Shown here one piece after another: positions 16,765 to 37,782 of a DNA stretch of 64,000 nucleotides (positions within the stretch are counted from its first letter, which is position 1; each line of letters starts with the position of its first letter). The stretch is from the NCBI GenBank assembly GCA_965277715.1, contig OZ255836.1, forward strand, positions 4,111,632-4,175,631. Reading direction: 5' to 3'. The translations under genes were made by a program, and so were the position numbers. Origin of the DNA: Gammaproteobacteria bacterium (GTDB lineage Bacteria; Pseudomonadota; Gammaproteobacteria; JBCCGL01). The notes below the pieces were generated by a model that was not told the DNA's origin, did no database searches, and worked only from the letters and a program-made list of their open reading frames with translations.

Positions 16765-18231
16765 ATGGCATTAACGATTAATACAAATGTCGCCAGCCTG
16801 AATGCGCAGCGGAACCTGACGGGGACTCAGCGCGATTTGGGTACGGCGTTACAACGGTTGTCGTCTGGTTTGCGCGTTAACAGCGCAAAAGATGATGCAG
16901 CGGGCCTCGCTATTGCCGCCCGGTTTACCGCACAAATCCGGGGTTCAGATCAGGCAGCGAGAAATGCTAATGACGGTATTTCTGTGTTACAGATTGCTGA
17001 AGGTGCCTTGAATGAAGTGTCTTCTAACTTACAGCGTATTCGCGAGCTGGCCGTGCAATCGGCCAATGCCAGTAACTCCAGCAGCGACCGTGCGAAGCTG
17101 AATAACGAGTCCGCACAGTTAATTGCTGAAATAGACCGCGTTGCAAGCAACACGAATTTTAACGGGTTAAATTTGCTGGATGGCACTTTTACCGGCCAGC
17201 GGTTACAGGTGGGCGCCGATTCGAACGCATCTAACCAGATTAGCATAACGCAAATTGCCAGTGCACGTTCTGGCGCGTTAGGGGTGGGTGGCCAATCGTC
17301 TTATTCTACGACCGTTACCGGCGGGGCGGTAACCGCTGCGACTGCCCTGGTTTCAGGTGGTATTACTATCAACGGTTTTCAGGTCGGTGCCAGTATTGCC
17401 GATGGGGTGTCATTCAATAATTCCACCGGTAGTGGTATTGCCAAAGCGGCGGCGATTAACGCGATCTCTACCAATACTAATGTTGTTGCCACTACATCGG
17501 CGACAACACTGACTGGAACGGTTAATACCGCAGCAACAACAGACAGCGATGGCGCTACCCTCAATGGTGTGGCACTGGGCACGGTTGTCGCTGTAGGTGC
17601 GGCCAACCTCGATCAGAAGGTGACTAACTTCACCGCCGCTGTTAACGCCATTAGCAGCCAGACGGGTGTAACGGCAACGATTACCAATGTCACGGCAGGT
17701 ACGTATACGCTGACTGCAGCAGATGGCCGGAATATCGATTATGTTGCTGACACAACCACCAATGGTTCTGTCGGTGGCGCGGCCGATGCCTCAGCTACCA
17801 GTAATATTGTACTGACCTCGACAAGCTCTACCGGCATCACCATCGGTGGTACTGCGGCGCAAATTGCCGCCGCAGGCCTGACCGGTGGCGCCAATGCTGC
17901 CACAGTGACCGTTAGTGCAGGTGTCTCCGCGCTGGATTTATCGACGGTGACAGGTTCTACCTCGGCACTGGGGGTCATTGATGCGGCGATAGAGAACATC
18001 GCCAACAGCCGGGCATCGCTGGGTGCATTCCAGAACCGCTTGGAATCGACCATATCCAATCTGCAGATTCAATCTGAAAACCTCAGTGCGTCACGCGGTC
18101 GGATTCAGGACGCGGATTTTGCCGCTGAGACGGCGAGCCTGTCGCGTTCACAGATTCTGCAACAGGCGGGTACGGCCATTCTGGCACAGGCTAACGCCCT
18201 GCCACAAAGCGTCTTGTCACTGCTACAGTAA
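16765..18231 (+). CDS. fliC: flagellin
   Basis: Canonical N-terminus (MALTINTNVASLNAQRNL..LSSGLRVNSAKDDAAGLAIA) and C-terminus (SRGRIQDADFAAETASLSRSQILQQAGTAILAQANALPQSVLSLLQ). It has a long, low-complexity central domain rich in T/S/A/G. Confidence 0.9.
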   Translation: MALTINTNVASLNAQRNLTGTQRDLGTALQRLSSGLRVNSAKDDAAGLAIAARFTAQIRGSDQAARNANDGISVLQIAEGALNEVSSNLQRIRELAVQSANASNSSSDRAKLNNESAQLIAEIDRVASNTNFNGLNLLDGTFTGQRLQVGADSNASNQISITQIASARSGALGVGGQSSYSTTVTGGAVTAATALVSGGITINGFQVGASIADGVSFNNSTGSGIAKAAAINAISTNTNVVATTSATTLTGTVNTAATTDSDGATLNGVALGTVVAVGAANLDQKVTNFTAAVNAISSQTGVTATITNVTAGTYTLTAADGRNIDYVADTTTNGSVGGAADASATSNIVLTSTSSTGITIGGTAAQIAAAGLTGGANAATVTVSAGVSALDLSTVTGSTSALGVIDAAIENIANSRASLGAFQNRLESTISNLQIQSENLSASRGRIQDADFAAETASLSRSQILQQAGTAILAQANALPQSVLSLLQ

Positions 18232-18249
18232 CAAACGTTTCCGCATGAG

Positions 18250-18286
18250 GCGGGGTGAGGTATCAGCCTGATACCTCACCGCCGCT
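18250..18286 (+). terminator. strong near-perfect palindromic stem-loop 3' of fliC (attenuator or stabiliser; no U-tract)
   Basis: GGCGGGGTGAGGTATCAG-C-CTGATACCTCACCGCCGC is a 15-17 bp stem with a 3-nt loop. It starts 19 nt after the fliC stop. It is not followed by a T-run. Confidence 0.4.
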
Positions 18287-18308
18287 GAAACGCAAGAGAG
18301 TCAAAGCC

Positions 18309-18725
18309 ATGAGAATTGAAACACAAAATGCAGTTGCCCGGGATTCAGCTACACAGGCACAAAGTGGCCCTGCTGTGCTTGCACCGGTAATCCGGCTCGA
18401 TCCCACAGCGCGGCAATCACCTGCAGGTACTGAACAGGCCTTGCCGGGAAATGCCGCTTTGGATAGCTCTGGGGCAGAAACTGAGCAGCTAAACGCCGCC
18501 GTGCGCAACATTAACGATTACGTACAGCGCTTGCAGCGCACCCTGCAGTTTTCTGTTGATGATGATACGGGCACCACGGTTGTCAAAGTGCTCAATGCGG
18601 AGACTGATGAGCTTATTCGTCAGTTTCCCCCGGAAGAAGCGCTGGCATTGGCCCGCCATTTGCAGTCGTCTCAGGAAACGCAGGCGCTTGACAATAGTGG
18701 TCTGATCTTACGTGCCCGTGCCTGA
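18309..18725 (+). CDS. flaG: flagellar protein FlaG
   Basis: 139-aa protein between fliC and fliD, with the FlaG-family C-terminal pattern (LQFSVDDDTGTTVVKVLNAETDELIRQFPPEEALALARHL). I place the start at the ATG at 18309, because the upstream extension of the six-frame ORF (from 18255) overlaps the fliC 3' stem-loop. Confidence 0.6.
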   Translation: MRIETQNAVARDSATQAQSGPAVLAPVIRLDPTARQSPAGTEQALPGNAALDSSGAETEQLNAAVRNINDYVQRLQRTLQFSVDDDTGTTVVKVLNAETDELIRQFPPEEALALARHLQSSQETQALDNSGLILRARA

Positions 18726-18847
18726 TGGGGTGTTTGAAATGGGGTTTTATAACGCACGCCAATGGGGTAAACCGTCGTGTTTACCCCGTTTAGAATGGTT
18801 CAGGTGTTAATGACCCAGGTGTTAATGGCCCAGGTGTACTAATGATC

Positions 18848-18863
18848 TGGGCGTACTTTTGCA
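18848..18863 (+). promoter_or_regulatory. sigma54-type -24/-12 promoter upstream of fliD
   Basis: TGGGCG-N5-TTGCA matches GG-N10-GC against the consensus TGGCAC-N5-TTGCW. It lies about 100 nt upstream of fliD. A FleQ-type enhancer-binding protein is encoded in the same cluster. Confidence 0.45.
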
Positions 18864-18961
18864 TCAGCGGGCTGAGACGCCAACAAACCTTTTGCAACAC
18901 ACCTGGCGGATTCGTATAGGTCTCACCGAACAATCAACGTGTGCGCGGTATTTGACGCACA

Positions 18962-20380
18962 TTGGATTTAACCATGATCACATCGGCTGGTATAGGCTCC
19001 GGGCTTGATATTGAAAATATAATAACGCAGCTGGTAACCGCTGAAGGTCAGCCTGCTGCGCAGAGATTGGATCGACGTGAAGCGGGATACCAGGCTGAAT
19101 TGTCTGGCTTGGGGCAAGTGAATTCAGCGCTCTCGCAATTTCGAACAAGTGTCACCACACTGCAAAATTTTGGCACTTCACAGCCGCGTGTGGCAACGGT
19201 GAGTGACAGCACTGTATTCACTGCATCAGCGACTGGCAGCGCGGTTTCTGCAAGTTACCAGATCCAGGTTAATGCGATTGCCGAAGCGCACCGTGTGAGC
19301 ACAGCAGGCGTCGCGACATCCAGTACCGCAACAGGCACTGGCACGCTGACAATCACCACCAACAGCAAATCGTTTAATGTGGTGGTCAATACCACTAATA
19401 ACACACTGGCCGGCATTCGCAGTGCCATTAATAGTGCTCAGGACAACACGGGTGTGAGTGCAACGATCGTCAATGTCGACAATGGTACGGGTGGTACGGA
19501 GAGTCGGCTGGTGTTAAGTGCGACTAACACGGGCACCCTGCACAACATCACCGTCTCAGCGGATGACGACGACAACAATGATACCGATACCTCGGGCTTA
19601 TCAATTATTTCCACGGCCAATTTGAGCGTGCTGAATGCGGCAGTCAATGCCAGTATTAGCATTGACGGGCAAACGGTTACCCGCGCTTCAAATACCATTA
19701 GTGATGCCATCGACGGGGTTTCATTGACGCTGCAAAAAGCCGATGTCGGCGTCAATAAAACCTTGACTGTCGGGCTTGATAAAGCGGCGGTCCGCACGGC
19801 TGTATCCACATTTGTCTCCACCTACAATTCGTTGCAGGGGACGTTAAACCAATTGACATTTTACAACGCCACCAATAACACCTCTGGGGCGTTGCTGGGG
19901 GATGCCACATTGCGTAATGTGAGGAACCAGATATCACAACAACTGAGCCAGACGGTGGCCGCTGTCAGCGGTACATTTAATAGCCTGCCCAGTATTGGCA
20001 TTGTTTCTGATGCCAGCGGCAACTTTCAACTGAATAACACCGTGTTCAACGCCGCGCTGGACAGCAACTTTAATGACATCAATACATTGTTTGCCGACGG
20101 CACAAATGGGATTGCCGTCAAACTGAGAACACTGCTCGATTCCTATCTTGGCAGCAGTGGCATCTTGCGAACACGCACCGATGGGTTACAAACCAGCATT
20201 AGCTCGATCAGCGATTCACGCCAACAACTGAGTGATCGATTGATACGTATTGAAGCGCGCTTTCGCACGGAGTTTACCGCGCTGGATACGCTGGTGGCCA
20301 ATTTCCAATCAACCGCAAATTTTCTTACGCAACAACTGGCGAACCTACCAGGGTTTACCCGTGCCCGTAATAACAGTTAA
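18962..20380 (+). CDS. fliD: flagellar filament cap protein FliD
   Basis: 472 aa with FliD N- and C-terminal coiled-coil regions and a central variable domain. Gene order is fliC-flaG-fliD-fliS. Confidence 0.8.
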   Translation: MDLTMITSAGIGSGLDIENIITQLVTAEGQPAAQRLDRREAGYQAELSGLGQVNSALSQFRTSVTTLQNFGTSQPRVATVSDSTVFTASATGSAVSASYQIQVNAIAEAHRVSTAGVATSSTATGTGTLTITTNSKSFNVVVNTTNNTLAGIRSAINSAQDNTGVSATIVNVDNGTGGTESRLVLSATNTGTLHNITVSADDDDNNDTDTSGLSIISTANLSVLNAAVNASISIDGQTVTRASNTISDAIDGVSLTLQKADVGVNKTLTVGLDKAAVRTAVSTFVSTYNSLQGTLNQLTFYNATNNTSGALLGDATLRNVRNQISQQLSQTVAAVSGTFNSLPSIGIVSDASGNFQLNNTVFNAALDSNFNDINTLFADGTNGIAVKLRTLLDSYLGSSGILRTRTDGLQTSISSISDSRQQLSDRLIRIEARFRTEFTALDTLVANFQSTANFLTQQLANLPGFTRARNNS

Positions 20381-20459
20381 GTGTCGGTTATGTCTTGCAG
20401 GTGATGACTGAAAACAACCGGTGTTACGCCAACCAAAATAAACGATTAAGAGGACTATT

Positions 20460-20888
20460 ATGAGTGTTACAAACCCAGGTGCGCTGCACGAATATCAACA
20501 GGTGGGGGTTTTTTCTGGCGCGGCCTACGCCGATCCGCACTATTTGATTACCATGCTGATGGAAGGTGCGCTGGAACGCATTGCATTGACCAAAGGAGCG
20601 ATAGCCAAAGGGGATGTGGTGGAAAAAAGTCGATTGATTGGTAATGCCATTACCATTGTGGAAGGGTTAAAGGGGTGCCTGGATTTATCCGTTGGCGGCG
20701 AATTGGCGCAAAACCTGGCAGACCTATACGATTACATGACGCGCCGCTTACTCAATGCCAACCTGAACAACGATATACAGATGCTCGATGAAGTAGCCAG
20801 TTTGTTGCACGAAATAAAAGTCGCCTGGCAGCAGATTCCGCAAGTGCACGAAAAACCCAAAAACCTGGAACGTATGGCGGTGAGATAG
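20460..20888 (+). CDS. fliS: flagellin-specific chaperone FliS
   Basis: 142 aa with FliS-family helices (LLMEGALERI...AIKIVEGLK-like). Position after fliD. Confidence 0.8.
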   Translation: MSVTNPGALHEYQQVGVFSGAAYADPHYLITMLMEGALERIALTKGAIAKGDVVEKSRLIGNAITIVEGLKGCLDLSVGGELAQNLADLYDYMTRRLLNANLNNDIQMLDEVASLLHEIKVAWQQIPQVHEKPKNLERMAVR

Positions 20889-20899
20889 CGTGAAAACAT

Positions 20900-21265
20900 G
20901 TGTTCGATTTACATTTGTTCGATTCAACGGGGGCTTTTAGCTTGAACTACAACGCATTGATCCAGGATATCGTTGACCTAAGCCAACAGATAGAGGATTT
21001 AGCGCAGAGCGACGACTGGCTGTCGATGCAAAACCTCGCCGACCGGCGTATGCGCGGTCTGCACACACTATTCGCCGCATTAGCATTGGATCAGCCTGTA
21101 CAACTGTCGGTGCTGGATTGTAAAAAACTAAACCATGTCCTCGATGCCAACCAACGCATTTTGGCCCATACCCGCCGTCGGCGCGATGCGGTAGTAATGG
21201 CGGTTGCTACACAGCGCGCCGCTACCGCTGCGCAGCGGGCATACACGGCCTGTCCTCAATACTAA
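20900..21265 (+). CDS. hypothetical small flagellar-locus protein at the FliT/FleP position
   Basis: 121-aa helical ORF at the conserved slot between fliS and fleQ. No diagnostic motif. Confidence 0.3.
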   Translation: MFDLHLFDSTGAFSLNYNALIQDIVDLSQQIEDLAQSDDWLSMQNLADRRMRGLHTLFAALALDQPVQLSVLDCKKLNHVLDANQRILAHTRRRRDAVVMAVATQRAATAAQRAYTACPQY

Positions 21266-21539
21266 CAAGCCAAATCTGGTCCTTCCAACGGGTAACAGGG
21301 ATAAATTTGGTGAGAAATATGCGCTAAATTTTTGTAATACTGTTTATTTTGTCTAATATTATAATGAGTTACAAAAAACCTTATATTAGCAATGCCTTGA
21401 ATTCACTGTGCAGCCAGCCCAACGCAGTCTGCATTCGCTTCAGCCGCGTTCGGTAGGCTATCTCCGCCATCCAAGTATGACCGGAAGACCTTCAGAATGT
21501 GAAATTCCAATCGGTAGACCGGTGATACGACACAAATAA

Positions 21540-22997
21540 ATGACCAAAAAAACACTAAAGAAAGTACTTGTAGTTGATATCGATACGGAGCGAACACGAT
21601 CACTGGCCACCTTGCTGAATTTTCTGGACTACAATGCCCAGGTACTCAGTAGCCCCGCACTCTTGCGCGAATTGACAGACCTGGCGGATTACGGCGCCCT
21701 GTTTCTCTATGAATCAAAGCAGGCACTGGCAATTGCTGCAGAGCTTGCCGAGAAATTGAGCCAGTGCCCGCCGTTGGTGCTGGTCGGTGATCACTTTGCC
21801 AATGAGCCGAGTGAAGGGGCACTGCCACCGGGGTTTATCGCCGCCATGAAAACGGACATCAAATACCCCGAGTTGAGCAATTTACTGCACCGTACTGAAC
21901 TCACCGCAAAACAACACAACAAAGACCTGCCACAATCGCTGGAGTTATTCCGCAGCCTGGTGGGCAACAGCCGCACTATCCGTCGTGTGCGCAAAATGAT
22001 CGAACAGGTTGCCAGTACTGAAGCCACTGTCTTGATTTTGGGTGAATCCGGCACGGGTAAAGAAGTGGTTGCGCGCAACATCCACTACTACTCAACACGC
22101 AGAAACAAACCGTTTGTACCCATCAACTGTGGCGCTATTCCCGGTGATCTGCTGGAAAGCGAACTGTTTGGCCATGAAAAGGGAGCGTTTACCGGCGCCT
22201 TGAGTGCCCGTCAGGGGCGTTTTGAACTGGCTGAAGGTGGCACTATCTTTCTCGATGAAATCGGGGATATGCCGTTGAACATGCAAGTCAAATTGTTACG
22301 GGTGATTCAGGAGCGCTCATTTGAGCGCGTTGGCAGCAACCGCAGCATCAAAACCAACGTGCGCATTATCGCGGCAACCCACCGTGACCTGGATGTATTG
22401 ATCGAGCAGGGACAATTCCGTGAAGATTTGTATTATCGACTCAATGTCTTCCCAATCGAAATGCCGGCAATGCGTGATCGACTCGAAGATCTGCCCTTGC
22501 TGGTCAACGAATTAATCACCCGGCTCGAACACGAAAAAAGTGGCTCGGTACGCCTGACGCCCGCCGCAATCGCCACCTTGTGCAACTACCGCTGGCCGGG
22601 CAATGTACGTGAGCTGGCCAACCTGATTGAACGGTTGGCGATTCTCTTCCCCTACGGTGTGGCGGATGTCAAAGACCTGCCCGCCAAAATAGTGCCAACG
22701 CAAACCAGTGGAGAACTTATCCCGCATGATGCAGTGGCGCTTGAGTATCCCGTCACTATGAGCTCAGGGGGCATGGCTAACCTGGAAATCCTCAGTAGTG
22801 AGCCACGCCTGCCGCGTGAGGGCATTGATCTAAAACAACACCTTACCGATATTGAAGTGAGCTTGATTAAGCAAGCCCTCGACGACACCGATTGGGTTGT
22901 CGCGCACTCGGCAAAGCGCCTGCGTATCCGGCGCACCACCCTGGTGGAAAAAATGCGCAAATACAATATCGTGCGGACTGAAGAGCTGTTGTTATAA
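21540..22997 (+). CDS. fleQ: sigma54-dependent flagellar master regulator (FleQ/FlrA-type enhancer-binding protein)
   Basis: It has an N-terminal FleQ/REC-like domain, an AAA+ sigma54-activation domain ([29 protein letters not shown]) and a C-terminal Fis-type HTH. It sits downstream of fliS-fliT, as fleQ does in Pseudomonas. Confidence 0.8.
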
Positions 22998-23030
22998 CAT
23001 CTGCGTATTGCCTACGCGATTATTCAGGTT

Positions 23031-23406
23031 CTGCGTTGCTCTACCTCCTGTGTCCCTACAGTCGTCGGCAACTGCTCCTGCGTTGCTCTACCTCCTGTGT
23101 CCCTACAGTCGTCGGCAACTGCTCCTGCGTTGCTCTATCTCCTGTGTCCCTACAGTCGTCGGCAACTGCTCCTGCGTTGCTCTATCTCCTGTGTCCCTAC
23201 AGTCGTCGGCAACTGCTCCTGCGTTGCTCTATCTCCTGTGTCCCTACAGTCGTCGGCAACTGCTCCTGCGTTGCTCTATCTCCTGTGTCCCTACAGTCGT
23301 CGGCAACTGCTCCTGCGTTGCTCTATCTCCTGTGTCCCTACAGTCGTCGGCAACTGCTCCTGCGTTGCTCTAGCTCCTGTGTCCCTACAGTCGTCGGTAA
23401 CTGTTT
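23031..23406. repeat. tandem array of a 47-bp direct repeat, about 8 copies (7 near-identical plus 1 degenerate)
   Basis: Unit CTGCGTTGCTCT(A/T)(C/T)CTCCTGTGTCCCTACAGTCGTCGGCAACTGCTC. Copies start at 23031, 23078, 23125, 23172, 23219, 23266, 23313 and 23360. They abut each other with no spacers. All three forward frames are open across the array only because the unit lacks stop codons. Confidence 0.9.
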
Positions 23407-23639
23407 CTGTGGAAAACAGGCTGGTGATGGTTACTGATGGTGTGAGATTGTGCTCTGATGTATTGCCTGCCGGAGACAACATTCAGTGTTTGATAGAGCT
23501 GAAAACATATCGCACACCTGCAAGATATGAGCGTGCTATGTATCGTCACGTATGCTACGTTTATTTGGTTACATCTACATTTGTAGAGTGTCTTCAGGTC
23601 TTTGTTGCACATTATTAGGAGGTTCGTTACCCGCTTTTG

Positions 23640-23672
23640 GGTGGCGGAGGAGGCGGAGGCGGAGGAGGCCGT
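23640..23672. repeat. (GGN)n simple-sequence tract
   Basis: GGTGGCGGAGGAGGCGGAGGCGGAGGAGGCC. Confidence 0.8.
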
Positions 23673-23768
23673 TGCGCTGTTGAGGGTGGGTTAATACCTC
23701 TGGCGAAATTATTTTCCTGTCTTCGTGGCGGTGGCGGGTTTGACGCTTTTTTAGACATAGTCAATTCA

Positions 23769-24359
23769 TCACTTTTTCATAAATTCAACAAACACTACAG
23801 CCGAGCCGTTGATAAGAATGCTTTCAACGTCGGATAAGGGTATTTCCGTATTTTCGCTATCAAGCCAGCTCGCCTCCCTGAGTAGAAAATGGCCGCTATG
23901 CGGTTCAGTTGGCCATTCTGAAGGCCAGCCGTATATTCTTCTACCATCATCCAGGTGCAATACAACATAGGTTATATTGTCGGCAAAGGCGCTAAACCAC
24001 TCGGACGCATAAGATGTTTCGCGGGTGATAGCGAGTTTTCTCATCAGCGCGTGAAACTTATCATTGTTTGCAAAATAAGCAAACACTAGACCCAATAGCA
24101 ATGATGTTATTAAGGCGCTGAGTAATTCGGTATTGGTATTCCATTCTATCCATCCGGGGTGTAGGCCCGTTACATTGGCCAGTGCTTTAAACAGAAACCC
24201 TAAACCCTGGATAATAATAGTAAATATGAGTGCTTGAACAACCCGTTCAAAATGGGATTGCTTGGGGTAGGAGGTAAAGGCATAAAAAATCCACGCGGTG
24301 ACGAAGCCGGGCAGCAGATATTGCAATAGTGATATAACACCGGTGTTGATTAAATCCAT
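23769..24359 (-). CDS. hypothetical membrane protein with about 3 N-terminal TM helices and a C-terminal soluble domain
   Basis: 196-aa ORF with hydrophobic helices (LLQYLLPGFVTAWIFYAF, VVQALIFTIIIQGLGFLF, LLSALITSLLLGLVFAYF). It lies in an AT-rich context, divergent from the CHAT gene. No recognisable motif. Confidence 0.4.
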   Translation of the reverse strand: MDLINTGVISLLQYLLPGFVTAWIFYAFTSYPKQSHFERVVQALIFTIIIQGLGFLFKALANVTGLHPGWIEWNTNTELLSALITSLLLGLVFAYFANNDKFHALMRKLAITRETSYASEWFSAFADNITYVVLHLDDGRRIYGWPSEWPTEPHSGHFLLREASWLDSENTEIPLSDVESILINGSAVVFVEFMKK

Positions 24360-24492: not shown

Positions 24493-25962
24493 ATGGAACA
24501 GCACAATATTTTGATACTCGGCGCCAGCCCCTGGAATCTTCACCGGGTTAGCCATGATGTAGAAATTCGTAATATACAAAAAGCCATAAAAAAAAGTAGT
24601 GGCGCAGATGCATTCTCTATCGAAACCAACTCCGCCGCGCAGTATCAGGATTTAGGCGAGGCGGTTTTGGCGCAGCAACCGCATATCCTGCATTTCTGTG
24701 GGCATGGCGGGGGTGATGTGGGGTTGGTTTTTGTGGATGAAGATAACAACGCCCAGCTCGCGGATAACACGGCTATGGAAAAACTCATCCGTATGCTGGG
24801 CAATCATGTGCGCTGTGTGTTTCTCAATGCCTGTTACAGTGAGGTGCAGGCAAAGTTACTAATTCCTCATGTCGACTATGTTATTGGCGTGCAGGGCACA
24901 GTGGGTGATGCCGACGCTCAGGCGTTTAGCACGGCATTTTATGAAAAACTGGGGGCTGGTTACCCGCTTACCTATGCTTTTGAGTTGGCCTACAACGACC
25001 ACTACCACGCCGAGCACTGTCGGCCAGTGTTGCTCAGCCGCAGTGAGCACCGCCTCTACCACAGTGATCTCGATACCCTCAATGAAATAAGCCAACGGTT
25101 GCAAACCGTCACCCCTGGTATTGCCCTCCTGGGCCAGGCGGGCCGTATCAGTGCTGCTTTGCCTCCAGCACTGCGAGCACGGATGCAGGGAACCTTTGGC
25201 CCTGAACGGGTATTAACACTTAGCCCCGTCAGTGACGACAAACAACAAGGTGCATTTTTTGCCCATCTCGCCGAGCAGGCGCAGTCTGATCAGGTCGACT
25301 TTAGCGGGTTAGCAACCGTCTTACAGCACCGGGTGGAAGACGGTAGCCTGCGCTGCCTGTTGCTAGGCCATTTGCAGCGCGGTAGCGCTGAAGAGTCCCG
25401 GCAACTGGCCGAGTTGTTGCGCAATTTATGTGAAGGGGGGCGGTTAAAGGTGGTGATTTACGGTGAGCGAAGACTGCGCGATTTAATGGTGCTTAACGGT
25501 GCGCTATCACCGCTGAATATGTTGGATTCACTCTACCTTGCCGAGTTGGGTGTAGAGGATGTTCTCAAGCTTGAGCCAGAGTTGAAGAGAGAAGAAGCCG
25601 AGGATTTGTTGGCGCTGTCTGGCGGGCACCCACGGCTGTTGCGTGAAGCGCTGTTTTGCTATCGCCAACAACCCAATCTGAATAAGGTAGCCGAGCAGTT
25701 GCAAACTGCGGTCGATGATATTGTCGATCAATGTCTTTGTGATTTTCGGGGGCAGGAGGATAGTATGGTGTTGTTAGCGGATTGCTTGCGTGAAGAACGG
25801 GCGGGTTACCGAGCAGACTTGATAGGTGATGAAGTGTTGGCGGCTTTATATTGGCATAACTTGCTGCGGCAGCAGGGGCATCAGTTGTACTGGCGTTGTA
25901 GTTTATTGCGTGAGACGGTGGAAGCAGTAGCGGCCAGCCTGGCCCGGCGGGCGGGGGTGTGA
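24493..25962 (+). CDS. CHAT-domain (caspase-like, clan CD) peptidase with a C-terminal alpha-helical domain of unknown function
   Basis: The N-terminal ~130 aa carry the CHAT/caspase His-Gly and Cys catalytic dyad in the canonical context (PHILHFCGHGGGD ... VRCVFLNACYSE). The remaining ~330 aa are Leu/Arg-rich and helical. There is no signal peptide. The stop at 25960-62 lies 1 nt before the next gene's GTG start. Confidence 0.7.
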   Translation: MEQHNILILGASPWNLHRVSHDVEIRNIQKAIKKSSGADAFSIETNSAAQYQDLGEAVLAQQPHILHFCGHGGGDVGLVFVDEDNNAQLADNTAMEKLIRMLGNHVRCVFLNACYSEVQAKLLIPHVDYVIGVQGTVGDADAQAFSTAFYEKLGAGYPLTYAFELAYNDHYHAEHCRPVLLSRSEHRLYHSDLDTLNEISQRLQTVTPGIALLGQAGRISAALPPALRARMQGTFGPERVLTLSPVSDDKQQGAFFAHLAEQAQSDQVDFSGLATVLQHRVEDGSLRCLLLGHLQRGSAEESRQLAELLRNLCEGGRLKVVIYGERRLRDLMVLNGALSPLNMLDSLYLAELGVEDVLKLEPELKREEAEDLLALSGGHPRLLREALFCYRQQPNLNKVAEQLQTAVDDIVDQCLCDFRGQEDSMVLLADCLREERAGYRADLIGDEVLAALYWHNLLRQQGHQLYWRCSLLRETVEAVAASLARRAGV

Positions 25963-25963
25963 T

Positions 25964-28900
25964 GTGCAGTTGAGACTTAGCGTGGCGTTACGCTACGGCT
26001 TACTATTGGGTTTGTGTGTGGGGTGGCTGCCGTTGGGGGTAGTGGCGGATGCTGTGCGACCGGCTTTGGTGCCTGCGGGTGAGCAGTTGGCTAGTGGTGA
26101 AGGGGCGTTGGATAGTTTGGCTCGGCGTTTGAATACACGCTTGGGCACTGTCCATCACGCGGCCTTCAGCCCGCAGGGAGATCGCATCGTTACGGCATCG
26201 AGTGATAACACTGCGCGGCTGTGGAATGCAGACAATGGCGAACTGATTGTGGTGCTTGAGGGGCATACGGATTGGGTTAATCACGCGGCTTTCAGCCCGC
26301 AGGGAGATCGAATCGTTACGGCATCGGATGATAATACTGCGCGGTTATGGAACGCAGACAATGGCGAACTGATTGCGGTGCTTGAGGGGCATACGGGCAG
26401 AGTTTATCACGCGGCCTTCAGCCCGCAGGGAGATCGCATCGTTACGGCATCGGGTGATGATACTGCGCGGCTGTGGAACGCAGACGATGGTGAACTGATC
26501 GATGTGCTTAAGGGGCATACGGATTGGGTTAATCACGCGGCTTTCAGTCCACAGGGAGATCGAATCGTTACGGCATCGGATGATAATACTGCGCGGTTAT
26601 GGAACGCAGACAATGGCGAACTGATTGCGGTGCTTGAGGGGCATACGGGCAGAGTTTATCACGCGGCCTTCAGCCCGCAGGGAGATCGCATCGTTACGGC
26701 ATCGGGTGATGATACTGCGCGGCTGTGGAACGCAGACGATGGTGAACTGATCGATGTGCTTAAGGGGCATACGGATTGGGTTAATCACGCGGCTTTCAGT
26801 CCACAGGGAGATCGAATCGTTACGGCATCGGATGATAATACTGCGCGGTTATGGAACGCAGACAATGGCGAACTGATTGCGGTGCTTGAGGGGCATACGG
26901 GCAGAGTTTATCACGCGGCCTTCAGCCCGCAGGGAGATCGCATCGTTACGGCATCGGGTGATGATACTGCGCGGCTGTGGAACGCAGACGATGGTGAACT
27001 GATCGATGTGCTTAAGGGGCATACGGATTGGGTTAATCACGCGGCTTTCAGTCCACAGGGAGATCGAATCGTTACGGCATCGGATGATAATACTGCGCGG
27101 TTATGGAACGCAGACAATGGCGAACTGATTGCGGTGCTTGAGGGGCATACGGGCAGAGTTTATCACGCGGCCTTCAGCCCGCAGGGAGATCGCATCGTTA
27201 CGGCGTCGAGAGATAACACTGCGCGGCTGTGGAACGCGGGCGATGGCGAACTGATCGCGGTGCTTGAGGGGCATACGGGCAGAGTTTATCACGCGGCTTT
27301 CAGCCCGCAGGGAGATCGCATCGTTACGGCATCGAGAGATAACACTGCGCGGCTGTGGAATGCAGACAATGGCGAACTGATTGTGGTGCTTGAGGGGCAT
27401 ACGAGTTGGGTTTATCACGCGGCCTTCAGCCCGCAGGGAGATCGCATCGTTACGGCATCGAGAGATAACACTGCGCGGCTGTGGAATGCAGACAATGGCG
27501 AACTGATTGTGGTGCTTGAGGGGCATAGGAATAGGTTTTATCACGCGGCCTTCAGCCCGCAGGGAGATCGCATCGTTACGGTATCGGGTGATGATACTGC
27601 GCGGCTGTGGAATGCAGACGATGGTGAACTGATCGATGTGCTTAAGGGGCATACGGATTGGGTTAATCACGCGGCTTTCAGTCCACAGGGAGATCGAATC
27701 GTTACGGCATCGGGAGATAACACTGCGCGGCTGTGGAATGCAGACAATGGCGAACTGATTGTGGTGCTTGAGGGGCATAGGAATAGGGTTTCTCACGCGG
27801 CCTTCAGCCCGCAGGGAGATCGCATCGTTACGGCATCGGGTGATGATACTGCGCGGCTGTGGAATGCAGACAATGGCGAACTGATTGCGGTGCTTGAGGG
27901 GCATAGGAATAGGGTTTCTCACGCGGCCTTCAGCCCGCAGGGAGATCGTATCGTTACGGCATCTAGGGGTAAGACTGTGCGGCTGTGGAGCGCAGACGAT
28001 GGCGAACTGATCGCGGTGTTTGAGGGGCATACGGATCGGGTTACTCACGCAGCCTTCAGCCCGCAGGGTAATCGCATTGTCACCGCCTCATTCGATGGCA
28101 GTATAAGACTATGGGACACAGATACAGCTAAACCGCTACGGCTTATGGTGGCCACCAGCAACGGCCAATGGCTAAACTGCCAGGCGAACGGCCATTGCTT
28201 ACGCCACGACGATGGCACATTGTTTTGGCCGCCTCTACCTCCCCAGGCCACAGGCGGTAAACTGAGCCTGGAAAATCTGCCCGAGGCGACAATCGACACC
28301 TGTATGTCGCTGCCTTGCGAGCCACGCGACTTTGTTGTCGGGATTCGCAATACCGGCACCGCGCCACTCTATTGGCTACAAGTGGTCTCGGCAGAAAGCG
28401 GCCCTGTCTCACTGTCATTACCCCCACCGCCGTTACCGCCATTGCACCCCGATGATCATGTTGAGCTAAGCATACGCCTGGCCAGCGTAGCACCCACACA
28501 GCAACCCCAGCGCCAAAACACCAGTATAAAATTGGCTATTCGCCACGCCCATGGCGAATTACCAATAGACCTGCCAGTAACCGTGCGCACCCCAGAGATT
28601 ACTCTGCTGGAAGCCAGCCTGACAGAAAACCGCGAAACCATCGCAGTGCAGGTGAGTAACCACGGCGGGGTTTCACTATCCCAGGCGGTTGCAGAGGCCG
28701 CCATCAATGGCCAGGCGATACCCGGTAGCCTTAACCTTCCAGTGCTTCCGGGCAATATGTCGAAACCACAACAATTGGCTTTTACGGCGCCCGCAGATTT
28801 TAACTACCCGGACGACACTGAGTTCACTTTGCAGTTGCGCAACGCCAACTACCCCCATTATCAGTGGACACTCAAACACCCGCTCACCCTGCCCTGGCAA

Positions 28901-30586
28901 CTCTATACCTTGCTGGCAGCACTGATTCTGGTGCTTGGCGGGCTGGCCTGGTTTGTCGGTGTGCGCTGGCATCCACTGGTGCGGCTGGCGGTTAATCAAG
29001 GCCCCACCGCGCTGGCACTGCCCCAGCTGGGCCAGGCGCGCCGCTGGCTGCAACGCGCCCGCCTGTGGCGGGATACCGTGCAGGCGCAAGGGCTGGCAGC
29101 GCGCTGGCAAAGCGCCGAGGCGTTTTTGGCCTGCCCTGACCCGGTGCAGCAAATCGAACAACTGGCCGGGCGTTTACAGGCCGAGGTGTTGCCCGCGAAT
29201 GAGGCTACCCCCACCTGGCTGGCCACCTTGCGTCTTAACGAAGGCTTTATCCTGCGCTTACCACAGTGCACGGTGGCGCTGCCCGGCGCCGATCATTCTA
29301 TCGACCAGATCACCACTCAGCTACGCCGTTGCGAAGGTGTATGCCTGCTAATCACCACAGACCCGGATCAACAGGCCGCGCTGCGCGCCGACCGCCAGGC
29401 CACCTGGGTGATACCGGACAACCAGGCTTTGGTGCGCCTATGGCTGGCAGCGGCGGATAAGGTTAACGATCAACTGGCCTCTATTATCGCCGAGCAGGTC
29501 GATACCCGTAGCCTTTCGCCCTGGCGCACTGGTCACGGTATGGAGGATATGACGATGTTTTTTGGCCGCGACCAGTTACTGCGCGATATCCTCGAACGAC
29601 CACCGCGTAACTACCTGCTGGTTGGGGCGCGGCAGCTGGGTAAAACCAGTCTGCTGCAAAAACTGCAACATCTCTGCGATCAGCGCGATACATTGCGTGG
29701 CTTTAAAATCTCGCTGGGCTCCGGCCATTTTGCCATCGATTTGCAACGCATCGCTGGGCAGTTGGCGTTGGCGCGCAACGCCTCTTTGCCAGACATTCTC
29801 ACTGCGTTGGCGCACCCGCCCGCCGGGATCCATCACTGGTTGTTAGTCGACGAGGCCGACGAGCTGGCGGGCAACCACACCCCGGAAAATGCAGCGGTTT
29901 TAGATCAAATGCGCAACCTGAGCGCCGAGGGCCGCTGTCATTTTATCCTCGCCGGGTTTTGGGGCCTGTACCGTGAGGCGATACTGGAGTACCAATCAAA
30001 ACTGAAAAACTTTGGTGACCTGCTGCTGTTGGATGCTCTGGAAGACAAGGCCAGCCGGGCGCTACTCACCCGGCCTATGCACGCCTTGCAGATTCACTAC
30101 CAGGATGACACCCTGGTAACGCGGATTCTGCACGAGACCGGCGGGCGCACTAATTTGCTGGCTATTGTCGCCGATGACCTGGTGCGCCGACTTGGCAATC
30201 AACGCCGGGTGATTACCGATGAAGATATCAGCGAAGTGCTAAACGATGCGGTGTTTCAGGATCGCCTGCTCGACTGGAAAACACTATCAGGGAATATACT
30301 AGATCAAATACTGGTATACGCTAGTATCGACCTCAACCCACTAGAGCAGGGTTTTACCGAGGCTGAATTATGGCAACGGTTGGATGAATTGGGAGACGAA
30401 GTATCCGATGATGCCGTACAAAATTCGCTGATTCGTTTACGGCTGGGATTTATCATCAAACGCGTTGGTGGACGTTACTACTATCGCGTGCCCGTGCAAG
30501 TACAGCAAATCCTCGACAGCGAACCGGAGCGTGCCTTGCGTAGATTGCTCAATTCTTTAGTCGGTGATATATCGAAACAATGTTGA
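25964..30586 (+). CDS. giant multidomain protein: signal peptide or anchor, then about 16 WD40 repeats, beta-rich linker domains, a single TM helix, then a cytoplasmic STAND/AAA_16-like P-loop NTPase with a C-terminal winged-helix
   Basis: N-terminal hydrophobic leader (LRYGLLLGLCVGWLPLGVVA). 16 units of a 42-aa WD40-like blade (HAAFSPQGDRIVTASxDNTARLWNADxGELIAVLEGHTxxV). A TM helix (LYTLLAALILVLGGLAWFVGVRW, nt ~28897-28970). Then FFGRDQLLRDILERPPRNYLLVGARQLGKTSLL, which is the FxGR-x(n)-GxxxxGKT/S pattern typical of STAND/AAA_16 ATPases. Walker B HHWLLVDEADEL. C-terminal wH-like RLRLGFIIKRVGGRYYYRVP. GTG start coupled to the CHAT gene. Confidence 0.75.
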   Translation: MQLRLSVALRYGLLLGLCVGWLPLGVVADAVRPALVPAGEQLASGEGALDSLARRLNTRLGTVHHAAFSPQGDRIVTASSDNTARLWNADNGELIVVLEGHTDWVNHAAFSPQGDRIVTASDDNTARLWNADNGELIAVLEGHTGRVYHAAFSPQGDRIVTASGDDTARLWNADDGELIDVLKGHTDWVNHAAFSPQGDRIVTASDDNTARLWNADNGELIAVLEGHTGRVYHAAFSPQGDRIVTASGDDTARLWNADDGELIDVLKGHTDWVNHAAFSPQGDRIVTASDDNTARLWNADNGELIAVLEGHTGRVYHAAFSPQGDRIVTASGDDTARLWNADDGELIDVLKGHTDWVNHAAFSPQGDRIVTASDDNTARLWNADNGELIAVLEGHTGRVYHAAFSPQGDRIVTASRDNTARLWNAGDGELIAVLEGHTGRVYHAAFSPQGDRIVTASRDNTARLWNADNGELIVVLEGHTSWVYHAAFSPQGDRIVTASRDNTARLWNADNGELIVVLEGHRNRFYHAAFSPQGDRIVTVSGDDTARLWNADDGELIDVLKGHTDWVNHAAFSPQGDRIVTASGDNTARLWNADNGELIVVLEGHRNRVSHAAFSPQGDRIVTASGDDTARLWNADNGELIAVLEGHRNRVSHAAFSPQGDRIVTASRGKTVRLWSADDGELIAVFEGHTDRVTHAAFSPQGNRIVTASFDGSIRLWDTDTAKPLRLMVATSNGQWLNCQANGHCLRHDDGTLFWPPLPPQATGGKLSLENLPEATIDTCMSLPCEPRDFVVGIRNTGTAPLYWLQVVSAESGPVSLSLPPPPLPPLHPDDHVELSIRLASVAPTQQPQRQNTSIKLAIRHAHGELPIDLPVTVRTPEITLLEASLTENRETIAVQVSNHGGVSLSQAVAEAAINGQAIPGSLNLPVLPGNMSKPQQLAFTAPADFNYPDDTEFTLQLRNANYPHYQWTLKHPLTLPWQLYTLLAALILVLGGLAWFVGVRWHPLVRLAVNQGPTALALPQLGQARRWLQRARLWRDTVQAQGLAARWQSAEAFLACPDPVQQIEQLAGRLQAEVLPANEATPTWLATLRLNEGFILRLPQCTVALPGADHSIDQITTQLRRCEGVCLLITTDPDQQAALRADRQATWVIPDNQALVRLWLAAADKVNDQLASIIAEQVDTRSLSPWRTGHGMEDMTMFFGRDQLLRDILERPPRNYLLVGARQLGKTSLLQKLQHLCDQRDTLRGFKISLGSGHFAIDLQRIAGQLALARNASLPDILTALAHPPAGIHHWLLVDEADELAGNHTPENAAVLDQMRNLSAEGRCHFILAGFWGLYREAILEYQSKLKNFGDLLLLDALEDKASRALLTRPMHALQIHYQDDTLVTRILHETGGRTNLLAIVADDLVRRLGNQRRVITDEDISEVLNDAVFQDRLLDWKTLSGNILDQILVYASIDLNPLEQGFTEAELWQRLDELGDEVSDDAVQNSLIRLRLGFIIKRVGGRYYYRVPVQVQQILDSEPERALRRLLNSLVGDISKQC
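26140..28120 (+). repeat. intragenic tandem DNA repeats (126-bp WD40 unit; 252-bp super-unit) with near-100% nucleotide identity
   Basis: At least three perfect 252-bp copies lie between about 26280 and 27100. The minus-strand ORFs 26345-26536, 26597-26788 and 26849-27040 have identical translations at exact 252-bp spacing. About 10 further, slightly diverged 126-bp units follow. Confidence 0.9.
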
Positions 30587-30708
30587 GGAGCGCATAACGG
30601 TAGACTGTAAGCGCCCTTAAATCAGCCTCTATTCCAAGGTAATGTCCAAAACGACATTCCAAGGTAGCAAGGCCTCTATCTTTTCAAGGAAAAAAAAAGA
30701 AAAAAAAA

Positions 30709-30806
30709 GGGGTCAAGGCAGTTATTTCCTATATTTCTTGCTGGAAATCACTGTTTTTATCCGTATTAGTCGTTGTATGGTGAATAATAAGCCTGACCCC
30801 CTTGCT
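30709..30806. mobile_element. MITE-like ~95-bp repeat element, copy 1 (short GGGGTCA terminal inverted repeats)
   Basis: AAAAAGGGGTCAAGGCAGTTATTTCCTATATTTCTTGCTGGAAA(T/C)CACTGTTTTTATCCGTATTAGTCGTTGTATGGTGAATAATAAGCCTGACCCCCTTGCTTTT. It recurs almost identically at 34784 and 37611. Its ends are inverted (GGGGTCAAG ... CCTGACCCC). Confidence 0.55.
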
Positions 30807-31187
30807 TTTAGGCTACGCAAAATTAGCCACAGCAGAAATACAATACCAGCGAGCTGGATGGTTATACCGAGAACAGCATTCATAAGGGGTTTCTCCAGAT
30901 TACGCCGGGGGAACCTCCTTCCCTGCCGGGAAGAAAAACCCCGGCAGGGTGGTTAAAACAAAATAAAAACAAAAAATAATGGGCTGCTTCTTTTGAGAGA
31001 CCAGCTATCTCTTAGGGCATACCTATCGGCAACGCCCTGACACTGACCGGGGTCAGCAATAAGTAGAAACCAAGATAGCGTGTCCTGCTAGAACGGGCAG
31101 TGAAGAAGATGGCAGTTTTTAACACCTATCGCACCGCCACAAAAATACACTGGTACTACCCTGATATTTTTATCTGGTGGCAATGTT

Positions 31188-34369: not shown

Positions 34370-35105
34370 GTGACTGATTTCTTGTTTAAGCACAGCACCA
34401 CGGTTGGCCAGCCCGGCTATTTTTTGCATGGTTTGTTATTAGACGGAAACCCCACATTCAGTGAAGGCGTGTACAGGCTTAACCATTGGGCCGTGCGCTT
34501 AGGCCGCGATGCGCATTCAGATGAAGCCCGCATGGCTTCTTTGCACGAAATGTATCATGCGACATTGAACGACAGTACTGCATACGGAACGTTAATGCAT
34601 GTGGTGGGATTATTTTGCCGCACCTATCCAGAAGAGAACCAATGGCCGAATCTTTTGCAGGCGCTTATCGACTCAGCGTTGCGCTGCCATGAAACCTATG
34701 CAACCTACGCGTCTGTATTTGTTGTTGGTAAAGGCTCGCCGAACAGAGCTGTGCTCGAACAGTATCCTGAAAGTCATTAAAAGGGGTCAAGACAGTTATT
34801 TCCTATATTTCTTGCTGGAAACCACTGTTTTTATCCGTATTAGTCGTTGTATGGTGAATAATAAGCCTGACCCCCTTGCTTTTCAAATTATGCGGGCGCA
34901 TGCGAATCTCACTGGTGCAGATGCTGATGGTTGGCTGACATCTCGTCAGGTTGCTGGATATCATCATGACGTATTTGCAACATATGGATTACCTGCCAGG
35001 ACTTTTGGTGGAACGCCAATAACAAGCGCTTTGTGGGAGTCAAACATTAATTTTGGAGGTTTTTTGGGCTACCGATATTGGTGTGATGGATGTGCTTCTC
35101 AATGA
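34370..35105 (+). pseudogene. hypothetical HExxH-motif gene disrupted by a MITE insertion
   Basis: The ORF 34370-34780 (contains LHEMYHATLND) stops exactly at the MITE border. The reading frame resumes after the element in a different frame (34884-35105: QIMRAHANLTGADADGW...). A ~97-bp insertion accounts for the +1 frame change. Confidence 0.45.
34784..34878. mobile_element. MITE-like ~95-bp repeat element, copy 2 (inserted in a coding sequence)
   Basis: Near-identical to copies 1 and 3 (GGGGTCAAGACAGTTATTTCC ... AAGCCTGACCCCCTTGC). Confidence 0.55.
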
Positions 35106-36042: not shown

Positions 36043-37611
36043 TAGAATGGCACTTCCTTAAGCTCTAAGTACATGAAAAATATGGAAGTACTTTCATTGT
36101 AAATGACCTATTTCTGTTTTTTGGGATGGCCATATTTTTTAACAACACTTCTGGCCACGTCCCTTGGCTGCATCAATAAAGGATACGGTTTGGGTCTTCG
36201 TTTAACCACTCTTGGTTCAATACGCCCCGGTCGATTACCCACACAGTTTTCTGCAATCAACGCACATAGCGCCAACACCTTATCACTACCCAGAGGGCTA
36301 CCGCCTTTCTGATAACGATACGTTACCCAAATTTGTAACGTATGCTTAAAACTTATCTGTCGAGGCAGTATGTCCACTAGTAAGGCAGATTGCGCCATTA
36401 ATAAGCGAATAAGGTTGTAAGCTAATATGTGTACCCACATTTCCTTCTCAACCATTTCTGGCGTCTTACAACGGAAAGTGTGCATCTTCATTGTCGTTTT
36501 TATATGGCGTAAATCAAGTTCGACATGCCAGCGTTCTTTGTAGAGCTGTTTAAGCGCCTCTTTAGACGCCGATTTAACTGATAACAACGTTGTCACCAAC
36601 AGTTTTTTACCCACTTTCAGTTCACGTATAACCACTTCATCAGCAGCCGCTTCATAGGCTTCTTCGCTCATCCACTCTGGTCTCTTCTTGGGCTTTGTAT
36701 AACAAATCAGATGATCCTTCGATCCAAGCCTTTTGCCTTCTCGAAAATCTGTGGATTTACGCCGCGCACCATGCGGCTCAAATACACCGTCTACTCCTTG
36801 CTCTATAAGGTTTGCTAGAAAAAAATAACCCGCAAAATAGGCATCACCCACCACAATATCACCCGGTTTAAGCGCATTTTGTATTTTTCTCAATAACGTT
36901 TGCTCATCCGCTCCCTTACCTTTAAAAGGACCCATTGCCGCATCGAGAACACCACCACTGGCTAAACAAATAATTCCTACCCAGCGACAAAGAGGAAAAC
37001 CGATCCCCACTTGCTGGCCTGACTGTTGCGGATAAACTACCTGATTTTCAGGCGTATCGGGCATTGTCACAGTGGTGCCGTCAACCAATTTAACTGAACG
37101 CCCTTGCCAGTGCCAGTGACTGGCCGCTTCATTCGCCACACACTCGCCTGTACAACGGGCAAGCCCTGAGACGAGGGGGGTTGGCAGCCTTTGTCGCGCT
37201 TTACAATAACTCCCTGTATACGTATTACTCACTGATAAACCTTCACTTAATCGCTGTACAGCGAGTGTGTTGACAGCTTGTTGGCAGGACTGATCTGCAC
37301 TCATTGTTTGGTATAAAAACAGCGATAAGGTATCTAGAGGAGGATAGCGACGCGCTCGAAAATCCGGTTGTAATTCTTCCAGTTTCGTAAGTAACTGAGA
37401 GGATGTCAGCAAGTGATAAAAACTCAATGCATCCGAGGATTGAGCTCGGCTTTTGATGCGACGTTGAAGAATGTTGACTTTTACATTACTCTGCATGATG
37501 GCTGGTTCCTGTGGGATAAAGGGTATTTGTGTTGGCAACAAATAACCTACCATAGAACCAGCTTTTTTTGTAATTACTTCAAATACTTACAGCTTAAGGA
37601 AGTGCCATTCG
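36043..37611 (-). mobile_element. IS4-family insertion sequence (~1.57 kb) with ~20-bp terminal inverted repeats
   Basis: Left end GAATGGCACTTCCTTAAGCTCT (36043-) and right end AGCTTAAGGAAGTGCCATTC (-37611) are reverse complements of each other. The element encloses a single transposase gene. Confidence 0.7.
36108..37553 (-). CDS. IS4-family DDE transposase
   Basis: 481 aa colinear with IS4-type transposases (…DGTTVTMPDTPEN…, …LLRKIQNALKPGDIVVGDAYFAGY…, …YKERWHVELDLRHIKTTMKMH…LIRLLM…). Confidence 0.85.
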   Translation of the reverse strand: MVGYLLPTQIPFIPQEPAIMQSNVKVNILQRRIKSRAQSSDALSFYHLLTSSQLLTKLEELQPDFRARRYPPLDTLSLFLYQTMSADQSCQQAVNTLAVQRLSEGLSVSNTYTGSYCKARQRLPTPLVSGLARCTGECVANEAASHWHWQGRSVKLVDGTTVTMPDTPENQVVYPQQSGQQVGIGFPLCRWVGIICLASGGVLDAAMGPFKGKGADEQTLLRKIQNALKPGDIVVGDAYFAGYFFLANLIEQGVDGVFEPHGARRKSTDFREGKRLGSKDHLICYTKPKKRPEWMSEEAYEAAADEVVIRELKVGKKLLVTTLLSVKSASKEALKQLYKERWHVELDLRHIKTTMKMHTFRCKTPEMVEKEMWVHILAYNLIRLLMAQSALLVDILPRQISFKHTLQIWVTYRYQKGGSPLGSDKVLALCALIAENCVGNRPGRIEPRVVKRRPKPYPLLMQPRDVARSVVKKYGHPKKQK

Positions 37612-37706
37612 GGTCAAGGCAGTTATTTCCTATATTTCTTGCTGGAAACCACTGTTTTTATCCGTATTAGTCGTTGTATGGTGAATAATAAGCCTGACCC
37701 TCTTGC
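37611..37706. mobile_element. MITE-like ~95-bp repeat element, copy 3, abutting the IS4 right end
   Basis: GGGTCAAGGCAGTTATTTCCTATATTTCTTGCTGGAAACCACTG ... AAGCCTGACCCTCTTGC. It is followed by the short CCTCCCTTG x3 repeat. Confidence 0.55.
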
Positions 37707-37782
37707 CTCCCTTGCCTCCCTTGCTTTCTAATAGTAATCTCCAAAGTGCACACGGTGATAATCGGACTACACGCAGAGGAGG

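Follow-up and report, generated by a model that had tools for sequence, protein, structure and literature searches.

What is the array of 47-nt units that lies directly behind the flagellar regulator gene fleQ in this gammaproteobacterial genome, and by what route did it arise? An original prediction, made from the sequence, had described eight nearly identical head-to-tail copies and read them as a recent expansion or copy-number variation. Here, we report an analysis of the array within its window, that is, the whole 64,000-nt stretch of DNA that was analysed, together with related sequences in metagenomes, viral contigs and reference genomes. We consider it probable that the array is a local, minisatellite-like amplification of one non-autonomous, two-hairpin element of about 47 nt, which belongs to a family found in distant environmental bacteria. 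The family is more interesting than the array alone, and the array by itself is modest.

The array and its flanks

The array is real and begins 33 nt past the fleQ stop codon. Tandem Repeats Finder places it at 23031-23403, with a period of 47, 7.9 copies (eight being the copy number in one assembly), 99% matches, no indels and a score of 718, and it is the one outstanding tandem array in the window. The units abut at the 47-nt period with no spacers, so that, as previously held, this is not a CRISPR array. In the register of the original prediction, unit position 14 reads C, C, T, T, T, T, T, G across the eight copies. Copy 8 combines this G with C>T changes in its tail; apart from these tail changes and position 14, the copies do not differ. 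At most one mismatch to the consensus is found in seven of them, against an expectation of zero in shuffled sequences. The features of the region are as follows, in the register of the element family, with H1 and H2 denoting the two hairpins of the unit and R1 the covariance model of the family.

21540-22997, + strand: fleQ, encoding the sigma-54 flagellar master regulator (Pfam FleQ, Sigma54_activat, AAA_lid_14, HTH_8)
22998-23030, + strand: spacer of 33 nt from the fleQ stop codon to the array, read from the sequence
23031-23064, + strand: truncated first unit with the 3' half of H1 (CTGCGTTGCTCTA) and the whole of H2, placed by the family consensus and covariance-model alignment
23065-23393, + strand: seven complete units of 47 nt, from R1 and predicted periodic hairpins
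23394-23435, + strand: degenerate terminal H1 copy, mainly a sequence reading, with a weak covariance-model score (2.8 bits, E = 0.19)
23436-23768, no strand assigned: non-coding right flank, holding a (GGN)n tract
23769-24359, - strand: DUF6338 membrane-protein gene (Pfam), convergent to fleQ

Each complete unit reads TCGGCAACTGCTCCTGCGTTGCTCTA-YCTC-CTGTG-TCCC-TACAG-TCG, in which H1 is GGCAAC-T-GC-TCCT-GC-GTTGCT and H2 is CTGTG-TCCC-TACAG. Two dyads had been noted in the unit; GCAAC-N9-GTTGC corresponds to H1, whereas CAGT-N8-ACTG arises only at the joins between units and is not a feature of the family, H2 being the true second hairpin. R1 scores alternate units at 69-72 bits and the intervening ones, as clipped matches, at 44 bits. 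The first unit lacks the 5' arm of H1 (the missing 5' half is ...TCGGCAACTGCTCC), and the left junction of the array, ...AGGTTC^TGCG, falls within the H1 loop. At the right edge, the sequence at 23394-23435 retains the H1 stem through compensatory changes (GGTAAC...GTTACT), with 18 additional nt in the loop region. It looks like an older copy of the element and is also present in four contigs of other strains.

The + strand of the array is predicted to fold into periodic hairpins with a minimum free energy of -145.5 kcal/mol (z = -3.19), a stability reached by none of 100 shuffled sequences. Two other readings of the unit were rejected. All three + frames are open since the unit contains no stop codons, and a hypothetical translation would yield a Cys/Leu-rich repeat of 47 aa, but the period of 47 nt and the missing start context speak against a protein-coding array. 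Relatedness or complementarity of the unit to rRNA was dismissed, the match being no better than that of shuffled sequences.

Sequences from other samples show the same arrangement. Three contigs, one of them labelled as sponge metagenome, encode a FleQ 99% identical to that of the window (P0121), with DNA identity of 99.3-99.4% over up to 11.5 kb, and the 33-nt spacer is identical in three other strains. All three contigs stop 63-97 nt past the fleQ stop codon, within unit 1 or unit 2. On the other side, four contigs of the same samples, located through a nearly identical DUF6338 protein (P0243), start 43-64 nt inside the last unit and run into the right flank and the DUF6338 and CHAT genes. 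These left-hand and right-hand contigs indicate that the repeat is shared across the species together with its two flanks; the combination is kept in at least four strains. Short-read assemblies break in the array, and the sequence of the other strains is readable in the edge units, where they differ at three sites: one is position 14 of the last unit (G, C or T), and the other two lie in unit 1.

These contigs also bear on the concern, raised with the original prediction, that a single unit had been inflated by mis-assembly. The copy number does come from one assembly, and short-read assemblies fail to cross the array. However, in the three other samples, DRR248315, DRR255135 and DRR066339, seven contigs run into the repeat, some from the left flank and some from the right, and all are interrupted within it, as is possible only with two or more units; the array contains ordered internal variants, and equivalent arrays occur in unrelated contigs. 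An assembly artefact thus has next to no probability. In the source genome, the array serves as a hypervariable marker where the conserved flagellar cluster meets a strain-level island, and short-read assemblies can be expected to break at it.

In the window, conservation of the flagellar cluster ends with fleQ, which follows maf, fliC, flaG, fliD, fliS and a fliT-like gene. The closest relatives retrieved, whose FleQ is 78-79% identical, carry fleS-fleR-fliEFGHIJ immediately behind fleQ, across a gap of about 110 nt that carries the sigma-54 promoter TGGCAT-N5-CTGCA; a FleQ search of reference genomes returned distant relatives alone, with no more than 56% identity. Neither fleS, fleR and fliE-fliJ nor remnants of these genes were found within the window, including the 41 kb after fleQ, and similarity to the relatives at both the DNA and protein levels ends at the 3' end of fleQ. 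The array therefore lies exactly at a break of synteny, in agreement with the proposal that it marks an interruption of the flagellar regulon. The missing genes must be elsewhere in the genome or lost. The flagellar cluster (16765-22997) was compared with two other loci (L081, L087); an Opp-type ABC transporter comes after the island. Two explanations tied to this position were discarded: derivation of the unit from the ancestral fleQ-fleS intergenic region or the fleS leader, where the resemblances (GTCCC, GTCGTCGG) had no BLAST support, and tRNA-linked integration, with zero tRNA genes in the window.

The spacer contains a hairpin, GCGTA-TTGCC-TACGC (23003-23017), that lacks a U-run, and no terminator was called anywhere in the spacer. 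On the other side, the right flank (23436-23768) yielded no Rfam match, no element copy and no strong promoter or terminator. The (GGN)n tract reported earlier is present in this flank, at 23643-23668 (Tandem Repeats Finder). Between the array and DUF6338 (23552-23837), two short ORFs on the + strand overlap this tract. One (23552-23683) would encode a hydrophobic putative peptide of 43 aa with an Arg8 tail; the other (23637-23837), preceded by AGGAGG, would encode a Gly-rich putative product of 66 aa.

The DUF6338 gene is the first of a compositionally atypical island of about 16 kb (about 23.4-39.5 kb), where GC content is 0.37-0.61 compared with a window mean of 0.51. The island contains a CHAT protease, a 1540-aa WD40 protein, unknowns and an IS4-like element with IS inverted repeats. 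The gene for the CHAT-domain protease is directly followed by that for the 1540-aa protein, with about 16 WD40 blades (24493-30586). The blades stem from a tandem repeat of 126 nt in the coding sequence (26154-28077, 15.3 copies, 87% identity); PADLOC 'chat' matches to this region are weak. The WD40 gene is immediately followed by a run of 19 A with one interruption (30690-30708), and this run leads straight into the first copy of a 114-nt dispersed repeat, which occurs three times in the low-GC part of the island (30696-30809, 34770-34883 and 37597-37710; 86-95% identity). One of these copies adjoins the right 33-nt inverted repeat of the IS4-like element (36045-37610; DDE_Tnp_1 transposase, 36108-37553), and the 114-nt repeats could represent solo IS ends or a MITE.

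A dispersed family of two-hairpin elements

By implication, the original prediction took the unit to be specific to this locus, which turned out to be incorrect. Exact matches of the 26-mer TCGGCAACTGCTCCTGCGTTGCTCTA, which spans the junction of adjoining units, number more than 120 in metagenome contigs and five in viral contigs, with none in the phage collection. Near-identical copies were found by BLAST in seven Pseudoalteromonas chromids, at one to five places per chromid of ~0.8 Mb. R1, which was built from 48 copies, detected 133 copies in 100 metagenome loci, inverted pairs included. It had no match in 1.2 Mb covering loci of FleQ relatives, and in the 64-kb window it matched nothing beyond the array. 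The possibility that the unit is a common dispersed REP-like element, which had been named as a potential refutation, is thus borne out for the family, but the element is not dispersed within these 64 kb.

The GC content of the host contigs is 0.34-0.67 among the matches listed. The ProC proteins of four element contigs (L094, L097, L154 and L201) are just 43-54% identical to one another, indicating that very distant hosts have the identical core in common. In these four contigs, the element is close to a conserved proC-yggT pair, a vicinity that may be a hotspot or a product of chance.

The family consensus of ~47 nt is (C)TCGGCAACTGCTCCTGCGTTGCTCTA-CCTC-CTGCA-TCCN-TGCAG-TCG. Most copies are solo; H1 is preceded by CCTC in solo copies and by CGTC in arrays. 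The ends of the element, TCGG... and ...GTCG, are not inverted repeats. H1 (GGCAAC-T-GC-TCCT-GC-GTTGCT) is invariant in the 26-mer match set, which is a product of selecting by the exact 26-mer, and it shows compensatory changes from C-G to T-A in Pseudoalteromonas, in two metagenome loci (L175, L098) and at 23394-23435 of the window. H2 keeps CA...TG around its TCCN loop, whereas the stem is free (CTGCA, CCTACA, GGTACA, GCGCCA, GGGCA and others). Five of the six H2 pairs are changed on both sides, over 30 cells. Across both helices, 92.9% of cells pair, compared with 24-48% with slid partners, and the observed covariation was reached in none of 500 shuffles. The wobble pairs of H2 (12 G-T versus 5 A-C), along with the invariant basal G-T pair of H1, mildly favor folding of the strand that is + in the window. 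The minus strand reads GTAG-A-GCAAC..., with GTAG one base off the H1 stem.

Rfam 15 gave no match on the element at E <= 1 in the window region and 20 element loci, and none at E <= 0.1 in 10 further element loci. Within a limited search of the literature, we found no matching element sequence, no earlier description of the element and nothing specific on Pseudoalteromonas REPs or the sample accessions.

Several copies record how the element enters new sites. Exact deletion of 47 nt restores four unrelated ORFs (IS21-type rve, IS3-type rve, IS91 Y2_Tnp and DUF222), with Pfam domains spanning the junctions in all four; these copies are seamless insertions with no target duplication. Another copy lies in reverse orientation within an IS66-type transposase gene. 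A 48-nt in-frame derivative with one extra base is present in an intact pglX (BREX-1 methyltransferase) gene, which BLAST found in Salmonella and Moellerella plasmids and two E. coli chromosomes. The copy identified in the Salmonella plasmid NZ_CP133280.1 (L213, 4001-4042) recurs in Moellerella NZ_CP093250.1 and E. coli ZF31/ZF34; the derivative encodes ...DDCMDAGGRATQDAKA..., and the same peptide motif is found in the IS66 transposase ORF with the reverse-oriented copy (L181). Residence in IS elements and plasmid genes is an obvious vehicle for horizontal spread.

Many solo copies sit in a host hairpin loop, xxxCA-TCC^TGxxx, the flank consensus being roughly T-Y-C^T-G-C. The orientations of neighboring ORFs (++ in 15 cases, -- in 14, convergent in 12 and divergent in 3) show that divergent regions are avoided and convergent or co-directional ones preferred, a bias typical of REPs; the window copy and the Pseudoalteromonas copy are each located between convergent genes. 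A search for a mobilizing gene revealed no recurrent protein family beside the element and no Y1_Tnp domain among 150 neighboring ORFs.

Other very small modules are nested in or beside the element (L123 133-200, L098 8680-8990 and L162 6267-6400, and likewise at L104, L144, L157 and L187). These include a module, CGCCTAARGCGCCTACTNTTGG, within the 3' arm of H1 and a reversed CCCACA-GGGA-TGTGGG hairpin in the H2 loop, and further xxCA-TCC(N)-TGxx hairpins are present in many element flanks, which suggests a wider set of loop-targeting mini-elements. A 44-kb IMG/VR contig classed as viral (L208) carries three copies within 650 nt (4293-4943), two direct and one inverted, adjoining a DNA methyltransferase-like ORF.

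Origin of the array and its possible functions

The H2 variant CTGTG-TCCC-TACAG is private to the array and present in all of its units; a 24-mer over it had no matches in 185,579 reference genomes and none in viral contigs. Together with the arrangement of the variable site in blocks, this uniformity indicates that the array was amplified in place from one founder rather than assembled by repeated insertion, in line with the recent expansion already suggested. Head-to-tail arrays with a period of 47 or 48 nt have arisen independently at no fewer than six other loci, including L162 (five perfect units and one hybrid), L095, L120/L163/L202 and L175.

The most probable course of events would start with a founder copy in the 3'-3' intergenic space behind fleQ, brought there by insertion or left over from a rearrangement. 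The founder would then have multiplied by replication slippage or by unequal exchange between perfect, hairpin-forming units. The array would have no dedicated function and would probably be neutral, any effect being a by-product: the fleQ transcript could gain a structured 3' end, for example, or the island junction could become prone to recombination. As the mover of the element, a putative trans-acting single-strand-DNA transposase of the HUH/Y1 type, as proposed for REPs, is the most plausible candidate.

Several observations count against this explanation. No mobilizing gene was found near the element copies, and copy number is low where it can be counted, whereas REPs are usually abundant. 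Typical REP/RAYT systems are inherited vertically, unlike an element whose 26-nt core is identical in very divergent hosts. Truncation of the first unit inside H1 means that a history of simple clean insertion followed by slippage is incomplete, and retention of the repeat between its two flanks across strains counts against neutrality.

A bolder reading, which we regard as tentative and rather doubtful, is that the family represents a new class of ultra-small mobile DNA. Such a two-hairpin module with an invariant 26-nt core would spread horizontally, partly by riding on IS and plasmid genes, insert seamlessly at Y^T, preferably in the TCC loops of hairpins, and form arrays by its own single-strand transposition and not by slippage alone. 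A further and less likely layer would be that its NGGA-loop hairpins serve as a portable CsrA/RsmA-binding module. If the family is genuinely mobile, it would be among the smallest known and unusual among REP-like repeats in crossing lineages, and its defined, conserved substrate would make REP-type copying testable.

The fleQ transcript probably runs into the array, given that there is no intrinsic terminator between the stop codon and the first unit. Sixteen stable hairpins could then form a structured 3' end, as a by-product or as a function, that would block 3'-5' exonucleases or insulate the two convergent genes. The periodic fold of the + strand and the wobble pairs, which favor the same strand, are consistent with this possibility. 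There is also a precedent, as REP/BIME elements are established stabilizers of mRNA in enterobacteria. In the REP literature, mRNA stabilization is summarized as a hypothesized role (PMC3733652). We nevertheless consider such a role improbable: the orientation of the family relative to genes is symmetric (++ 15, -- 14), which argues against selection for the sense orientation, and one or two hairpins would suffice, so that eight units are unneeded.

The minus strand has features of a different kind. Each unit would present hairpins with NGGA tetraloops (GC-AGGA-GC and CUGUA-GGGA-CACAG) and a GGAG between them, and an antisense or read-through transcript could act as a CsrB/RsmZ-like sponge that titrates CsrA/RsmA, a regulator of motility. 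The 373 nt of the array contain 23 GGA on the - strand and none on the + strand. Stretches of 373 nt in the window average 2.9, the maximum elsewhere being 14, on the other strand. The GGAs of the array fall within the predicted hairpin loops. The family H2 core, CA-NGGA-UG, resembles the SELEX consensus for CsrA, which Dubey et al. in 2005 reportedly determined as RUACARGGAUGU. The GGA count, however, amounts to unit composition (the probability of at least three TCC is 0.30) multiplied by eight. No sigma-70-like promoter, GacA/UvrY box or terminator for a minus-strand RNA was detected, matches to the GacA/UvrY box in the window being at chance level with none near the array, and Rfam contained no Csr/Rsm match even at E <= 1. 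The wobble pairs favor the opposite strand, the family is randomly oriented relative to genes, and its ORF-internal copies argue for selfish insertion. A sponge RNA is accordingly very unlikely.

At the DNA level, direct repeats at the edge of an island that appears horizontally acquired could be read as a protein-binding array, that is, iterons, a centromere-like site or operators, serving the island or fleQ. Yet solo copies of the unit occur inside unrelated genes and hairpins of unrelated hosts, no rep, par or integrase gene is adjacent, and the site lies between two convergent 3' ends and not at a promoter. Moreover, the 47-bp period is out of helical phase, and no sigma-54 motif is present near the array (matches in the window are at chance level). 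We regard this reading as highly implausible. The original prediction had suggested looking for a small RNA or for regulator binding; neither a small RNA gene nor a regulator-binding array gained support, with no Rfam match, promoter, terminator, GacA box or sigma-54 motif found.

Comparison with known systems

REP/BIME sequences are GTAG-tagged repetitive extragenic palindromes that are thought to be mobilized by RAYT Y1 transposases. The element resembles them in its short hairpin units, with a covarying H2 and compensatory changes in H1, and in its extragenic location, mostly between convergent or co-directional and rarely between divergent genes. The occasional copies in ORFs and other palindromes, and the clusters and ordered tandem arrays are likewise REP-like, and the GTAG beside H1 on the minus strand recalls the REP tag. 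Tandem arrays, ORF-internal copies, insertion in palindromes and the same intergenic bias have all been described for REPs (PMC3733652, PMC3116915). Unlike REPs, which have one hairpin in 20-40 nt, the element packs two into 47 nt, and its core is identical across distant hosts, whereas REPs are lineage-specific and mostly vertically inherited. Its GTAG is on the strand disfavored by the wobble pairs, the high copy number of REPs is lacking (one to five copies per Pseudoalteromonas chromid and none beyond the array in 64 kb), and no link to a RAYT was found among the 150 neighboring ORFs.

The CGTC that precedes H1 in arrays is reminiscent of CGTC-tagged REPs, and the 48-nt derivative in frame in intact pglX recalls the RPEs in Rickettsia genes; we know of no dedicated transposase for the CGTC-tagged REP/RPE class. 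RPEs, however, are 100-150 bp long and occur in Rickettsia alone, whereas the element is about 47 nt and usually breaks the reading frame. In cyanobacteria, Elhai et al. reportedly described, in 2008, small dispersed repeats (SDRs) that are ultra-small (<50 nt) and apparently mobile. Seamless insertion and the nesting of modules in one another and in hairpins (here at L123, L104, L144 and L187) are shared with SDRs; their sequences, their length of 21-27 nt and their host group are different, and tandem arrays are no hallmark of theirs.

The array has its closest likeness in minisatellites, such as mycobacterial MIRU-VNTR loci and the boxB units of pneumococcal BOX elements, which form head-to-tail intergenic arrays of 40-100-bp units (45 nt for boxB). 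Copy number and unit sequence of these loci differ between strains, as does the unit sequence here. In contrast to the element, each is confined to one genus and has no known seamless solo insertions in genes, and MIRUs are not composed of hairpins. The similarity to CsrB/RsmY/RsmZ lies in the many GGA motifs in hairpin loops of one strand. The array differs from these RNAs in its perfect tandem units and the random orientation of family copies, and it lacks the marks of a discrete transcription unit, with no promoter, upstream activating sequence, terminator or covariance-model match. The absence of terminal inverted repeats and target-site duplications separates the element from MITEs, and the 47-bp period, with no rep or par gene in the flanks, separates the array from iterons, which are usually 17-22 bp and in helical phase. 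Overall, the element acts like a REP or a small dispersed repeat and the array like a minisatellite; the distinctive traits are the 47-nt two-hairpin build, seamless insertion, a tendency towards exact head-to-tail arrays and a 26-nt core that is identical in very divergent hosts.
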